DNA of 64,000 nucleotides from Patescibacteria group bacterium (GTDB taxonomy: Bacteria > Patescibacteriota > Saccharimonadia > Saccharimonadales > Saccharimonadaceae): the NCBI GenBank assembly GCA_020160975.1, contig JAIUPJ010000001.1:907551-971550 (forward strand), read 5' to 3'. Each line of letters starts with the position of its first letter. Positions within the stretch are counted from its first letter, which is position 1. The position numbers and the translations under genes are program-made. Positions 7,072-40,292 of this stretch are shown here, in pieces. The notes below the pieces were generated by a model, which ran no database searches, had not been told where the DNA came from, and saw only the letters and a program-made list of their open reading frames with translations.

Positions 7072-7160
7072 GATCGAGAAAATGAAAACGGCCCACCGAA
7101 AGGGCTCAAGCGCGAATGTGATTGAACACATTCGGCGAACCGTTTTCGATGGGCTTTTCC

Positions 7161-7406
7161 TCAGTCGGGGATAAGGAGCGAGCCGATGAGCCCCACGACG
7201 AAGCTGCCGAGCCACCACCCGAGGAAGTCTGTTCCGTGGTTCTGTGCCCAGCTGTACTGGACGATGGCGATGAACAGGATCGCGGCGATCACGATGAGGA
7301 GCTCGACGATCACGGGGAGCCTGTCGTGATAGGAAATCAGCGCGATCGCCACCAGGACGGGAGCGAAGAACGAAAGAACAACCAGGGCGAAGAGAAATGC
7401 CTCCAT
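7161..7406 (-). CDS. small two-TM membrane protein, possibly GlsB/YeaQ/YmgE family
   Basis: 81-aa ORF, strongly hydrophobic with a Gly-rich second helix (LGWWLGSFVVGLIGSLL). Local GC is clearly above the window average. Confidence 0.4.
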   Translation of the reverse strand: MEAFLFALVVLSFFAPVLVAIALISYHDRLPVIVELLIVIAAILFIAIVQYSWAQNHGTDFLGWWLGSFVVGLIGSLLIPD

Positions 7407-7590
7407 GGCTAGCCAACTTTCTGAGGTGCGCTGATCGCACCTCGGTAGAATGAACCGGAAATTGCGAACAGCTAAATCTCATTATAGCATACATATATAA
7501 AAATGTCAACTGTTCCTGTCAAGTCACGGGGGTGGTATACTAAGTAACAGATAAGCATGAGTAATTTCTAATCGATCAAAAGGGGTAAGT

Positions 7591-32785: not shown

Positions 32786-35302
32786 CTATAGCTGTTTTAG
32801 GCGCTCGCAGACAGCTTGCTGGTTCTTTTCGATGAGATCGACGCGGCCCTGAAGGTCGGTGATGCCCATTTCAATCACTCGCTTGAGGCCTATGTTGTGG
32901 AGCATTGGTGTGAAGAAATCGGTGTATTCCTGGAGCTGTCGGCGAGTCATCAGGAATTGCCCGGCGTACCGGGGATAATAATCGTAGCTCTTGTCGCTGC
33001 CAAAAGTTTTTTCAATCCACGTCCAATTATCGCGTAGCCATTGCCAGGTACGTTCCCGGGCATGCCGGTTGATCAGCATGTAAATAAACCAATAGGTTGT
33101 GTCTTGGGGGCGAATCAGCTCGGTGTTTGTCAGCATGCCAAGCACCCACTCGATGCTGGCTCTATCCTTGACGCAAGTAACCGCTCCGCGAATATCCTCT
33201 TTGAGATCGGGCGAAACTTCATGCTGGTAGCGCTCCATCAGCGAGGTCAGGAGCTCGGGGTTCTCACCATAGCGCACATCGACGCCAACCAGTAGCCCGC
33301 GCAGCTCGGGGTCAAGTGTCTCTAGTGGTTGGGCGCGAGCGCGGCGAATCGCTTCGGTGATTACCGCTTGATCCTCGCTGTAAATCATCTCGGTAATCAT
33401 GCGAGTACGAAGTTTAATGTCGTTGTCCGATTCGTTGTCTCGCTTGTCCCAGCCGAGCCGCTCGAACTGCGTGCGAGCAAGTTCGCCGACAAAGGTTCGT
33501 AATTTTTTCTCTGCTACCTGGTCGTTCTCAATAAATTTCTTGAGTTCGTTGATTGCCATCACGATCGCATCCCAGACTTGCTCTTCAGATTCGTTTTGAT
33601 ACGCACCGAGGATGTCGATTAATGTCGAAGGATGAACCTCGCCGCCGCGAACTAATAGAATCTGCTCGTTGAGGAGCTGGAGGCGTTGAGCGGTAGTGAG
33701 CTCGCCGCGTTGAAGTCGATCCAGTAGTGCCGCCAGAAGCGCTTCGTCATAATGGGTGATAAAGTGTGCGCTATTGTGTTGGTTGAGGAGAAGCGAAGAG
33801 CCAGTATAAGTAACGACAGCTTCCCTAGTGTCGAGCAGAGTCGGAACTTCGGGGCTTTCGGCCTCGAGCGGAATCGGCCAGAGCTGGTCCCTAGAGTTGT
33901 GAGGCCCGATGAAGAACTGGGATTGGCGAAGCGTCAATTCATTGTTATCGAGATGGGCTGTCACAACCGGGTAGCCTGGTTGTGAAATCCAGGCTTTCAT
34001 GAGGCTGCCAATCGCTTTGCCGCTGGCGGCATCGAGACAATCCCATAGATCTGTTTCGTCGGTGTTTTGGTAGGCAAATCTGGTGAAATATTCTTTCAGC
34101 CCGGCGCGAAAGGCGTCTTCGCCAATGTACTCCATCATCATACGTAATAGTCGTGCGCCTTTGCTGTAAACAATCGCGCCATCAAAAATTGACTGAATCT
34201 CATCCGGATGGTGAACGTCGGTCTGCACTGATTGGACACCGTCAATCGCATCACGGCGAGCTGCCATGACAGCCGAACCGGCATCAAAATCTAGCCAAAC
34301 GTTCCAGTCTGGGTGAAGGGCGTTGGGTGCGATATTCTCCATGATACTGGCAAAACTTTCATTGAGCCAGAGGTTGTTCCACCATTTCATAGTGACGAGA
34401 TTGCCAAACCACTGATGGCTGAGCTCGTGAGCGATGACAGCACTGACGTATTGACGAGCATTGATACTGCTGTGGGTTTTGTCGACGATGAGGGCAGTTT
34501 CGCGGTAGGTGATAAGCCCCCAGTTCTCCATGGCGCCGGCACTAAAGTCTGGTACTGCCACATGATCAGCCTTGGGCAGCGGATACGGTACGCCAAAATA
34601 ATCATCAAAAAACTCGATGATCTTGACAGCTTCTTCGAGGGCAAATTGCAGACTTTTACTTTTCTGAACGGGGGTGGCCCAGACTGTGACCTCGACTCCC
34701 TGCGACGTTGTTGCCGATGCTGACTGGAGCTCGCCCATGACGATAGCGAGTAGATAGGTGCTCATGCGGGGTGTAGTGTCAAAGGTCGTGACCAGCCTAT
34801 CGTCGATAGTGTTTTGGCTTGTCGCCGGCATGTTGCCGAGCACGGCAATGCCGGTTTCTGTCGTGACGGTGACGTCAAAGGTGGCTTTGGCGGCCGGCTC
34901 ATCGATACACGGAAACACTTCGCGCGCATAGTGGCTTTCAAACTGCGTTACAAGCAATTCTTTCTTCTGCCCCTCATGCGTGAAGTAGCACGGGTACAGT
35001 CCATGCAGCGAGTCGGTGATGCTGCCGTGGTAGGTAATAGTGACCGTGTGGTCTCCTGGCGTCAGGCCATCCTGAGAAATCGTCACTTCGTCATCCTGCC
35101 CGTAGCTAAACTGTGCCGGCTGGTCGTCAATAGTAGTCTCTGTAATGCTGAGGTCGTGCGCGTGTACGGCTATCTGGCCATTGACAGACGATCCAGTGAG
35201 GATGACCGTACCTTGGAAGGTTCGCCCTGTGCGGTCGATCACGAGATTTAGATTGTAGTTGGTGGGGATAAATCGATCAAGGAGACGAGAAACTGTTTGC
35301 AT
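32786..35302 (-). CDS. pepN: aminopeptidase N (M1 family zinc metallopeptidase)
   Basis: 838 aa with GAMEN and HELSHQWFGNLVT...E motifs. Confidence 0.95.
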   Translation of the reverse strand: MQTVSRLLDRFIPTNYNLNLVIDRTGRTFQGTVILTGSSVNGQIAVHAHDLSITETTIDDQPAQFSYGQDDEVTISQDGLTPGDHTVTITYHGSITDSLHGLYPCYFTHEGQKKELLVTQFESHYAREVFPCIDEPAAKATFDVTVTTETGIAVLGNMPATSQNTIDDRLVTTFDTTPRMSTYLLAIVMGELQSASATTSQGVEVTVWATPVQKSKSLQFALEEAVKIIEFFDDYFGVPYPLPKADHVAVPDFSAGAMENWGLITYRETALIVDKTHSSINARQYVSAVIAHELSHQWFGNLVTMKWWNNLWLNESFASIMENIAPNALHPDWNVWLDFDAGSAVMAARRDAIDGVQSVQTDVHHPDEIQSIFDGAIVYSKGARLLRMMMEYIGEDAFRAGLKEYFTRFAYQNTDETDLWDCLDAASGKAIGSLMKAWISQPGYPVVTAHLDNNELTLRQSQFFIGPHNSRDQLWPIPLEAESPEVPTLLDTREAVVTYTGSSLLLNQHNSAHFITHYDEALLAALLDRLQRGELTTAQRLQLLNEQILLVRGGEVHPSTLIDILGAYQNESEEQVWDAIVMAINELKKFIENDQVAEKKLRTFVGELARTQFERLGWDKRDNESDNDIKLRTRMITEMIYSEDQAVITEAIRRARAQPLETLDPELRGLLVGVDVRYGENPELLTSLMERYQHEVSPDLKEDIRGAVTCVKDRASIEWVLGMLTNTELIRPQDTTYWFIYMLINRHARERTWQWLRDNWTWIEKTFGSDKSYDYYPRYAGQFLMTRRQLQEYTDFFTPMLHNIGLKRVIEMGITDLQGRVDLIEKNQQAVCERLKQL

Positions 35303-35342
35303 ATATGTATTGTATCAGAGAAACACGGGGTATACTGGACTC

Positions 35343-36077
35343 ATGAAACAACGTCGCCGGCGAGTTCTGGGAGTGATATTGATTGCGATTGCAATCGCGC
35401 TGATGACGGTGAATTCTGGCCAGTCTCAGTTTGGCGCGCCAACAACGTCTACGCGGCCGTCTGGTCCAAACATTACCGATGCGAGCCTGCCGAAAGAGAA
35501 TCCCCCGCAACCAACACCGCTCGCGATCGTCGTGCTGGATACCATCGCCATCAAGGGGCGTGCGCCCAAGACTGATTATCGACGGGTGCAATTTGGTGAC
35601 GGATGGATACTGGTTGGAAACTGCGACACGCGCAACATCATTCTCAACCGCGATCTAACCGATGTAACGCTGACGGGCTGCAAGGTGGCGACAGGCAAGC
35701 TGACCGACCCGTACACAGGTAAGCTGATTGATTTTCAGCGCGGGCCCGAGGGGAGCACGTTGATACAGATTGATCATGTGGTGGCGCTGAGCAACGCTTG
35801 GCAAACCGGTGCGCAGTTGCTGACGCTTCAGCAGCGGATTGCCTTTGCTAATGACCCACTCGAATTGCTGGCGGTTGATGGCAACGCCAATCAAGCAAAG
35901 GGCGATGGTGACGCCGCGACCTGGCTACCGGCAAACAAAGCCTTTCGCTGCCAATACGTCGCACGTCAAATTGCGGTGAAAGCTAAGTATAGTTTGTGGG
36001 TGACACAGGCCGAGAAAGAGGCTATGCAGCGGGTGCTCAGGGAATGTCCGGAGCAGACGGTACCGGGAGTGAGGTAG
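35343..36077 (+). CDS. membrane-anchored/secreted DUF1524 (HNH-like nuclease) family protein
   Basis: Start MKQRRRRVLGVILIAIAIALM (signal/TM), then a low-complexity linker, then a DUF1524-type core (GCKVATGKLTDPYTGKLIDFQRG...IDHVVALSNAWQTGA...DGNANQAKGD). ORF track start 35259 is less likely. Confidence 0.6.
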   Translation: MKQRRRRVLGVILIAIAIALMTVNSGQSQFGAPTTSTRPSGPNITDASLPKENPPQPTPLAIVVLDTIAIKGRAPKTDYRRVQFGDGWILVGNCDTRNIILNRDLTDVTLTGCKVATGKLTDPYTGKLIDFQRGPEGSTLIQIDHVVALSNAWQTGAQLLTLQQRIAFANDPLELLAVDGNANQAKGDGDAATWLPANKAFRCQYVARQIAVKAKYSLWVTQAEKEAMQRVLRECPEQTVPGVR

Positions 36078-36865
36078 GGTTGGTCTTAGAGCTTAGAGCA
36101 TAGCTAAACTGCAAAAATAACCCTTGGTTCTAAGTCTTAAGTCGTAAAAAATTGTTTTTCGTCATTCCGGACTTGATCCAAAATTTAAAGATTCTGGTGT
36201 GCTTCTTCTCTAGAAAATCAAATCCTTTCTTTTGTCTCATCAAAAGAAACAAAACCGACCACCTTTGGAGTCAAAGGTGGAGAAACCTCTGGGGCGGCTT
36301 CCCTCCGCCGGGAACAGCAACTACGACTTTCTTGGAAGACTGCGGAGTCTTTGTTCAGTGAGCAGGAACAAAGACGAAGTCCTCGTCTTGCCAGGAAAGC
36401 CGTAGTCACCGTGTCTCGGGTCAGTCCAGATGCCCCAGACCCCAGGACGCAGCAGAGCTGCTTATTTCAGCGGCTCTGCCGCAAAATACTGCAGTCACTC
36501 GTGACTGTACACCTAATGGGTCTTGGGAGCTCAAGAACCCAAGAAGACTGAGGATTGTCTTTTGGAGTCATTCACGACATTGTTTCCACTACAAACAATA
36601 GCGATACTGTAGTGGAATGCCCTTTAGGGCAGTATGTCGTGACCAAAAGACAAGCAGAAGGCTTCTTGGCGTGAATGAGATATCCCAATGTCGTGTTTGG
36701 TTCTTTGATCGAAACAAAGAACTGTTTCCCTCGCTTTGCAGCAAAGCGAGTCGCTTTTTGCTTCTTTGGCGAAAGAAAAAGAAGTGGATTTATTCGGTTC
36801 TTTTGGATAAAGAGCTAGACTTACCCGTTTTGCAAAAAGGAGACGGCATATAAATTTTTAATCCC

Positions 36866-36934
36866 AAAATGTCAAAACCCCACCCTCACCACACTGGCGG
36901 AGCGGGGCTCGACGCCGAGTGGGTGAGGGTGGGG
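36866..36934 (-). terminator. strong intrinsic terminator read on the minus strand
   Basis: 13-bp perfect stem ccccaccctcacc / ggtgagggtgggg (36878-36934), followed on the minus strand by TTTTGACATTTT. Confidence 0.5.
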
Positions 36935-37261
36935 TGAATCAGAGGGCTGCTTGATACGCGCTGTCGGACGTCTTGATGAACCAAGGCCTCCAAAGCGGTA
37001 GTAGCGGTAGTTTCCTCAAGACAAGTGTCACTGGGTAGTGGCGGCTGTCAGCTGAGCTTGTCCCTACAGATCCCCACATGTGTCTTTGTCTGCGCTTGTA
37101 GATGAAGTGCACAGCAGGGCTCTTCGAGGTTCCTTTTGTGCGTTCATGCCGCTGCACTTGAGTGATCGTGCAGTTGGAGGCGACGACGACGACTTCCATT
37201 GTGCGAGTGATCACAGCATCTCCCATGATTGAGTGTCCAAAAACCAAAAACTTCCATTTTA

Positions 37262-37293
37262 ATTATGACAAAACTAACTATATTTGTCAAGTT
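37262..37293 (-). promoter_or_regulatory. minus-strand sigma70-like promoter (TTGACA-N17-CATAAT)
   Basis: Reverse complement of 37262-37293 reads ttgacaaatatagttagttttgtcataat. Points leftwards into the ORF-poor region. Confidence 0.4.
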
Positions 37294-37310
37294 TTGCGAT
37301 GTTGTAACAG

Positions 37311-40292
<2,982 letters not shown>

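Follow-up and report, generated by a model that had tools for sequence, protein, structure and literature searches.

A strain-variable modular insert with inverted hairpin-rich units and an orphan-gene cassette at the GmrSD_C-yhhQ junction in Saccharibacteria

Several described systems provide a frame for the hairpin-dense interval that lies at positions 36080-37310 of a 64,000-nucleotide (nt) stretch of contig JAIUPJ010000001.1 (hereafter the window) from a Patescibacteria group bacterium, between a GmrSD_C/DUF1524 gene and yhhQ. ERIC/IRU, Correia, RUP and BOX are bacterial intergenic repeats resembling miniature inverted-repeat transposable elements (MITEs) and fold into rods. The attC sites of integron cassettes of the Vibrio cholerae repeat (VCR) type carry R''/R' core sites RYYYAAC/GTTRRRY, and type I toxin-antitoxin systems (par/fst, txpA-RatA) pair a short hydrophobic toxin open reading frame (ORF) with an overlapping antisense RNA. 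Repetitive extragenic palindromic (REP) units are palindromes of ~20-40 nt, dispersed in many copies per genome, and copies of the repeat stand on both sides of their cognate REP-associated tyrosine transposase (RAYT) gene (Nunvar 2010; Bertels and Rainey 2011). GOLLD, ROOL and OLE are described as large ornate RNAs in PMC12286853. The interval resembles REP/REPIN-RAYT systems, rod MITEs, tandem terminators, VCR cassettes and type I toxin-antitoxin loci, yet has the defining features of none of them. Here, we show that it consists of two non-coding units rich in hairpins, A and B1, whose family is absent from Rfam and has not been described before, together with an orphan-gene cassette.

Taken as a whole, we read the interval as a strain-variable modular insert at the GmrSD_C-yhhQ junction of one Saccharibacteria sub-clade, in which the cassette accompanies two inverted paralogous units that act as RNA, and we give this full reading about an even chance. 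The modular architecture, the presence of the insert in some relatives and its absence from others, the conservation of its structure by compensatory changes and its mosaic lateral exchange emerge directly from a comparison with the yhhQ neighbourhoods of relatives (L-numbered loci) and one GTDB representative (L061). The modules and their control elements are as follows.

36212-36443, minus strand: unit A, a rod hairpin of ~150 nt (36289-36437) followed by tandem terminators, T2.
36444-36517, plus strand: spacer between the 5' ends of both units, with hairpins at 36449-36482 and 36492-36507 and a conserved GCCGCAAAAUA.
36518-36795, plus strand: unit B1, with a rod of ~170 nt (36523-36688); the span 36444-36795 includes the two small spacer hairpins.
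36796-36873, no strand assigned: B2, an A+T-rich stretch separating the converging ends of B1 and the cassette, poorly conserved relative to L009; on its B1 side, at 36755, contigs of other assemblies begin.
36874-36935, minus strand: H, a 59-nt hairpin followed by GGGGUUUUGACAUUUU, with a 14-bp outer stem, an inner 8+4-bp extension and a conserved loop.
36939-37247, minus strand: orphan small ORF (C), whose frame is intact in L081.
37262-37290, minus strand: sigma-70 cassette promoter TTGACA-17-CATAAT with an upstream TG, matching the consensus at 11 of 12 positions.
37294-37322, plus strand: yhhQ promoter TTGCGA-17-TATACT, found by promoter scan, at the right-hand edge of the insert.

The rod of unit A starts with GGGGUCUGGGGC and closes with GCCCCAG, and its T2 comprises a hairpin at 36280-36259 followed by UCGGUUUUGUU and a next hairpin at 36249-36226 followed by GGAUUUGAUUUUCU. 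Alignment and nhmmer identified homologs of unit A as X in L009 (3572-3775), X in L080 and A2 in L009 (4692-4945), the last being an extra A-type copy that is inverted and relocated beside yhhQ. Read in the sense of the window's minus strand, the A-type copies share a ~150-nt rod closed by GGGG(C/G)...(G/C)CCCC and then two hairpins with U-tracts. In unit B1, the tip of the rod is formed by two hairpins (36584-36617 and 36618-36632), a further hairpin follows the rod at 36700-36722, and the tandem terminators lie at 36730-36750, followed by UCGCUUUUUG, and at 36762-36785, followed by UGGAUUUAUU. B is collinear with its L009 counterpart at 73% identity, with no difference from L009 in a 34-nt block around 36668-36707, and the spacer hairpin at 36492-36507 differs in sequence in every homolog. 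Both rods start with GGGKCUKGGG and close with CCCMAR. When a covariance model was built from the A/X copies alone, all of it could be aligned with plus-strand positions 36518-36794 (37 bits, E 3e-8), and because of this alignment we regard B1 as a paralog of A, distant and in inverted orientation. The units abut at their 5' ends and their terminators point outward, those of A toward GmrSD and those of B1 toward the cassette.

A first-pass annotation of the window, made by a model from the letters alone, had proposed a comparative alignment in search of covarying base pairs, and compensatory pairs were indeed found, 25 each in A/X and in B1, among just three to four sequences. For A/X, RNAalifold yielded 54 pairs, of which 25 were changed on both sides among the four copies. 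For B1 (alignment A4, three copies), the consensus contained 117 pairs with 96.3% pairing, and 25 of the 117 were changed on both sides; shuffled controls gave 9.1 +/- 2.5 such changes (0 of 500 reached 25) and slid partners gave 1-6. The terminator-like sites on the plus strand of B1 are conserved as well, the hairpin at 36730-36750 occurring in three different, fully paired stem versions. A stable hairpin followed by a U-tract, the arrangement that marks an intrinsic terminator, was found at 36280-36259 (minus strand), at 36730-36750 (plus strand) and at H, and likewise in L009 and L080.

The same annotation had described an ORF-poor interval packed with perfect hairpins, and all 11 stem-loops that it listed are present in the sequence where it placed them. 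Counting perfect hairpins with a stem of at least 8 bp and a loop of 3-35 nt, we found seven in 36080-37310, compared with 0.55 +/- 0.78 (maximum 5) in 300 dinucleotide shuffles of the region and with 0.67 predicted for the interval from the rest of the 64-kb window (Poisson P = 6.5e-6), which bears out a density above chance. Minimum-free-energy (MFE) z-scores in 300-nt windows on both strands ranged across 36250-37149 from -5.3 to -9.2 on the plus strand and from -3.5 to -9.4 on the minus strand, and in the flanking genes mostly from -2 to +2. The structure is real within 36212-36940 and does not extend over the whole interval as had been supposed, 37000-37300 folding at chance level. Stem tops of the form CTTTG...CAAAG number four in 64 kb, three of which fall in this interval; with only four in the window, a genome-wide uptake or terminator motif was rejected. 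The claim that the interval is an unusual gap in a gene-dense genome holds, as it is the sole large ORF-poor gap of the window, in which the median spacing between long ORFs is 34 bp, and two further apparent gaps are occupied, one by an 81-amino-acid (aa) gene and one by a 224-aa ORF and a tRNA.

Three concordant signals suggest, weakly, that transcription of each unit proceeds outward, on the minus strand for A and on the plus strand for B1. Only this outward strand has T-tracts after the terminal hairpins. In the union of the structures predicted in both orientations, G·U cells are more numerous on the outward than on the opposite strand (27 on the minus vs 12 on the plus strand for A/X; 38 vs 16 for B), and outward folding is better by 2-15 kcal/mol in seven of seven unit copies.

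The right third of the insert is an exchangeable small-gene cassette. H is conserved in L009, L017, L081 and L082 and persists as a decayed remnant in L061. Its U-tract lies at 36873-36860 on the minus strand, within B2, and its mismatches in relatives, C-A when read on the plus strand, would form U·G pairs on the minus. Four unrelated minus-strand ORFs each stop 0-3 nt from H, which we designate, from its hairpin and U-tract, as the intrinsic terminator of the small-ORF cassette. The position of the window's ORF is taken by unrelated ORFs of 100, 61 and 73 aa in L009, L017 and L082, respectively, with good ribosome-binding sites in L009 and L017, and the equivalent of the cassette promoter in L009 matches the consensus at 12 of 12 positions. 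This promoter and the divergent yhhQ promoter have their -35 region in common, and cassette swaps break there: L017 and L081 are 97.7% identical in the left flank and share the yhhQ promoter, their ORFs differ, and the right breakpoint of the swap is the shared -35 hexamer. In L082 (395-460), a strain with a 98% identical yhhQ, the different 73-aa ORF seems to lack the canonical -35/-10 of the window, L009 and L017; a 5'-untranslated-region (5'-UTR) hairpin of the CGCG...CGCG GAACC type is common to L082, L009 and L017.

It had been stated that no ORF of the interval is protein-like, which is probably wrong for the minus-strand ORF at 36939-37247. Its homolog in L081 is 81% identical at the nucleotide level without indels, the substitutions number 14, 14 and 26 by codon position, and gene callers annotated the ORF in other assemblies. 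Possible starts are TTG 37247 (102 codons), ATG 37226 (95 codons) and ATG 37199 (85 codons, kept in L081). A search of 1.8 billion protein representatives returned only the ORF itself; Pfam, PADLOC and PHROG contained no match for any of the four cassette ORFs, and the 100-aa ORF of L009 likewise matched only itself in large protein collections. A C1q/TNF-like fold was considered for this L009 ORF and rejected (low-confidence AlphaFold model, pLDDT 64; weak, untrusted structural matches at E >= 0.016 and template-modelling (TM) score <= 0.43). An 18-mer of H had 58 matches in GTDB genomes, of which only that in L061 was from Saccharibacteria, the others being chance.

The exchange of unrelated orphan small ORFs between conserved flanks, with a ~59-nt imperfect palindrome at the ORF 3' end, recalls VCR-type integron cassettes. 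Unlike these, each locus here holds one cassette and the 5' breakpoint is a shared -35 hexamer; no RYYYAAC/GTTRRRY cores were found around H and no integrase among the called genes of the loci.

The state of the slot between GmrSD and yhhQ varies widely among the relatives.

L011 (72 bp), L015 (18 bp), L087 (71 bp) and L088 (6 bp): empty slot.
L061: a decayed copy of hairpin H alone, in a 270-bp gap.
L013/14: a PadR gene and a 143-aa gene.
L017/18: a RAYT-like Y1 transposase (Pfam E 2.6e-6) between REP palindromes, then H and the 61-aa ORF.
L081: a REP as in L017/18 adjoining H, then a C-type ORF; the contig begins just left of the REP, with the RAYT gene outside it.
L006/7, L082, L009/L010 and L080: sequence homologous to the window's interval.

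Since the slot is empty or differently filled across relatives, the tight GmrSD-yhhQ junction is the ancestral state and the slot is a hotspot for differing accessory inserts. The yhhQ promoter is kept in relatives whose slot is empty. In L017 (380-1135; also in L018), the 205-aa RAYT-like Y1 transposase gene has REP palindromes GCTATCGGGTCGTACCCGATAGC on both sides and directly adjoins H, and a copy of this REP stands beside H in L081 (13-30); both the RAYT gene and GCTATCGGGTCGTACCCGATAGC are absent from the window. A module encoding a PadR-family regulator and a 143-145-aa protein (L013 3157-3942, L017 2223-3015, L081 1199-1991) occupies the slot in one lineage and lies directly downstream of yhhQ in others, and seems to be another mobile accessory module.

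Within this hotspot, divergence is distributed unevenly. The insert at 36755-37310 differs from L006/L007 at 6 of 556 positions and yhhQ at 105 of 696, that is, ~1% vs 15%, and contigs of independent assemblies end at 36421, 36700 and 36755, which are module junctions. On account of this disparity and these breaks, the sequences point to a mosaic and recent lateral exchange of the insert. Contig ends recur at 36421, 36700, 36755 and 37343-37347 (L083, L084; L007; L006, L082, L086), as expected if co-occurring strains differ in the next module. L080 matches the window without a difference over 36700-37159 and diverges more to the left (89% identity over the whole 36433-37159 match), and has an unrelated left-hand gene in place of GmrSD. 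In L080 (936-1367), the element consisting of X, B1, H and C adjoins the end of this unrelated gene, which has its own terminator, and it therefore occupies a second genomic context.

These observations can be combined into a proposed course of events. It is most likely that the units act as RNA, in which case transcription of each would run outward and stop at its own terminators. Within the insert, they would most probably serve as stable, structured 3'-end modules or insulators, blocking read-through into GmrSD or antisense transcription into the cassette, and the extra copy in L009 might similarly stop transcripts from entering yhhQ; equally, the units could be structured small RNAs in their own right. 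Movement by homologous recombination is the most likely route of spread among strains, with exchange presumably occurring at the module junctions. A bolder version, in which A/X and B1 constitute a new expressed family of structured RNAs of Saccharibacteria that travels in inverted pairs together with an exchangeable orphan-gene cassette, and whose role possibly goes beyond termination (e.g., protein sequestration or control of the cassette), is put forward only tentatively. The T2 units and H share with tandem Rho-independent terminators their G+C-containing hairpins, U-tracts and pairing kept by compensatory changes, whereas rods of 150-170 nt and sequence-conserved linkers, such as the 34-nt block, are unexplained by termination.

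The main rival to units acting as RNA, and a serious one that we regard as somewhat doubtful, is that A and B1 are selfish, non-autonomous foldback DNA repeats of a MITE- or REPIN-like kind whose RNA structure is incidental, the hairpins being a by-product of inverted repeats, kept perfect through template switching or because a transposase working on single-stranded DNA requires them. Several observations favour such repeats or weigh against a function as RNA. No conserved sigma-70-like promoter was found upstream of A or B1 by scan or by eye, the one weak candidate being TTGTCA-15-GATAAT at L009 A2. Watson-Crick pairing amounts to 91% in the helices predicted on both strands, G·U being as rare in one orientation as in the other (12 vs 14 cells), and MFE z-scores do not differ between strands; DNA-level palindromes kept by template switching would look similar. 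The covariation statistics, from three to four independent sequences, are thin and are inflated by relatedness, and the insulator role of the units is a guess from geometry. In addition, the units occur in inverted copies, and inverted T2 units of ~55 nt bracket A+B1 (36226-36283 vs 36723-36785), which can also be read as outward terminators. A third, relocated copy is present in L009, the distribution is accessory and mosaic, and the slot is a hotspot that holds a RAYT/REP element in sister strains.

What speaks against foldback repeats is that searches of the whole window and of ~147 kb of related loci by nhmmer and the covariance model revealed no further copy of the units, that comparison of the L009 A2 junctions with the empty site of the window shows no direct repeat indicative of a target-site duplication, the GmrSD-side junction being too diverged for such a comparison, and that the window contains no transposase near the units and lacks the REP of the RAYT. 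Furthermore, the T-tracts are confined to the outward strand, the terminator hairpins were kept through three stem versions, and the union test brings out a strand asymmetry, as do the folding energies, in the numbers of G·U pairs. The first-pass suggestion of a REP-like array is partly sustained: palindromic units are repeated here, in intergenic inverted pairs as in REP/BIME and REPIN-RAYT systems, and a RAYT-like Y1 transposase with REPs sits in exactly this slot of sister strains. In contrast to REPs, A and B1 are units of 230-280 nt, about ten times longer, with no other copy in 64 kb and not detectably multi-copy, they have RNA-like features, and GCTATCGGGTCGTACCCGATAGC of the L017/L018 RAYT is unrelated to them. 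ERIC/IRU, Correia, RUP and BOX are likewise imperfect-palindrome rods of ~130-170 nt in intergenic modular mosaics able to carry terminators, whereas A and B1, whose copy number is seemingly 2-3 at one locus, have no definable terminal inverted repeats accompanied by target-site duplications. A decayed mobile element had also been suggested; the accessory, laterally exchanged nature of the insert and the RAYT/REP in the same slot of sister strains bring this reading, too, closer to what is found, although the units have RNA-like features.

Alternatively, A and B1 could be trans- or antisense-acting small RNAs, for instance regulators of the cassette resembling those of type I toxin-antitoxin systems, transcribed from unrecognised promoters, which we consider unlikely. 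Their layout is like that of small-RNA genes (a structured body and tandem terminators), B1 converges on a strongly promoted small ORF, and the candidate promoter of L009 A2 and the cassette promoter have a -35 region in common; a small ORF with a strong promoter beside a convergent, highly structured, terminator-capped RNA-like unit is also what type I loci display. Yet the cassette ORFs of 61-102 aa are neither hydrophobic nor membrane-like, no antisense overlap is evident, the B1 and cassette terminators being ~65 nt apart, no conserved promoter was found, and the units persist as the ORF changes. Far less probable is a single structured non-coding RNA of ~1 kb comparable to GOLLD, ROOL or OLE, extending on the minus strand between the promoter at 37290 and the terminator at 36259. 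A strong promoter and a terminator on that strand do bracket the interval, the MFE is -400 kcal/mol for 1021 nt, and the distribution is patchy as in ROOL and GOLLD. As in GOLLD, ROOL, OLE, HEARO (omega RNA) and raiA, much conserved secondary structure occupies a long ORF-poor stretch of strain-variable occurrence. Unlike those families, the interval has no covariance-model match at E <= 10, its stems are long and near-perfect where ornate RNAs have multi-junction folds with conserved internal loops, and its terminators face both directions. H would be a strong terminator in the middle of such an RNA, whose first 350 nt would be a replaceable, unstructured ORF cassette (z ~0), and B1 looks better on the plus strand. 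Its parts are also not collinear on one strand in relatives, as L009 carries A2 inverted beside yhhQ, C is replaced and L061 retains only H; the large non-coding RNA proposed in the first-pass annotation was accordingly set aside. A frameshifted remnant of a protein gene is scarcely credible. Short ORFs of 40-102 codons do occur on both strands, but tblastx similarity to the L009 homolog is equal in all six frames, which disposes of the pseudogene reading, the sole Pfam match is not significant (E 0.96), a 78-aa ORF over the most conserved B block has no relative among 5.8 billion proteins, and the conservation is explained by compensatory base-pair changes.

Known RNA families were equally unrevealing. 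At the gathering score, Rfam 15 returned only a tRNA elsewhere in the window, and at E <= 10 the window together with L009, L080, L081 and L082 gave only chance matches resembling microRNAs or small nucleolar RNAs far below threshold; the proposed Rfam check, including GOLLD, HEARO, ROOL, OLE and raiA, produced nothing credible. The failure to match RNase P, tmRNA, the signal recognition particle (SRP) RNA or 6S RNA, as first reported from consensus motifs, was confirmed in Rfam, and all four were rejected because of this and because the element is missing in close relatives, as a core RNA would not be. An RNAI-like match in L009 (3539-3633, E 0.14) was discarded as merely three consecutive hairpins. 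A preQ1 riboswitch for yhhQ was rejected, there being no match and the yhhQ promoter lying downstream of the insert. A 20-mer of the B core had two matches in JGI metagenomes, of which L080 is real and L079 is chance. Five viral pattern scans yielded nothing real, L020 being a chance match within a coding region, and blastn against phage and plasmid records gave no match to the interval.

The GmrSD_C/DUF1524 gene at 35259-36077 (Pfam E 2.3e-16) adjoins the interval on the left and yhhQ/Vut_1, followed by tgt and queA, on the right. The contig comes from a Saccharibacteria (TM7) metagenome, the nearest named relatives of YhhQ are from Saccharibacteria oral taxon 955 (67-69% identity), and yhhQ of L009 is 83% identical to that of the window. 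The true start of yhhQ is probably ATG 37332 (region 37311-37335), since the protein has 224 aa in relatives and the called ORF of 231 aa includes the -10 TATACT (37317-37322); from this start a leaderless or near-leaderless mRNA is therefore predicted, and a leaderless-type layout is also seen in L009 and L011. Just past the GmrSD stop codon, the motif TAGAGCTTRG occurs two to three times in several relatives (window 36086-36100; L061 2540-2570; L017 275-300). Elsewhere in the window, a second hairpin cluster at 7072-7590 corresponds to the 81-aa gene, which encodes a predicted membrane protein (7161-7406, minus strand), has a strong promoter (~7510), a 5'-UTR hairpin and a terminator, and is unrelated to the 36080-37310 interval.

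Saccharibacteria have reduced, gene-dense genomes with short intergenic regions, reportedly without validated small RNAs, and no validated small RNAs are described for TM7x (bioRxiv 10.1101/2022.03.25.485537). Given these properties, a 0.7-kb non-coding block with conserved structure is unusual in this group. The locus illustrates how accessory DNA is assembled and exchanged in Saccharibacteria, a tight core-gene junction serving as a hotspot for varied inserts, of which one type brings its own terminator-capped structured units and a slot for swapping orphan small genes. Whichever explanation of the units applies, the locus advises caution against taking a hairpin-dense gap for one giant RNA. 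If the units are selfish foldback repeats, they would add a new type of repeat to those of the candidate phyla radiation; if they are expressed RNAs, they would form a new and directly testable structured RNA family, among the first structured regulatory or insulator RNAs described for the phylum.

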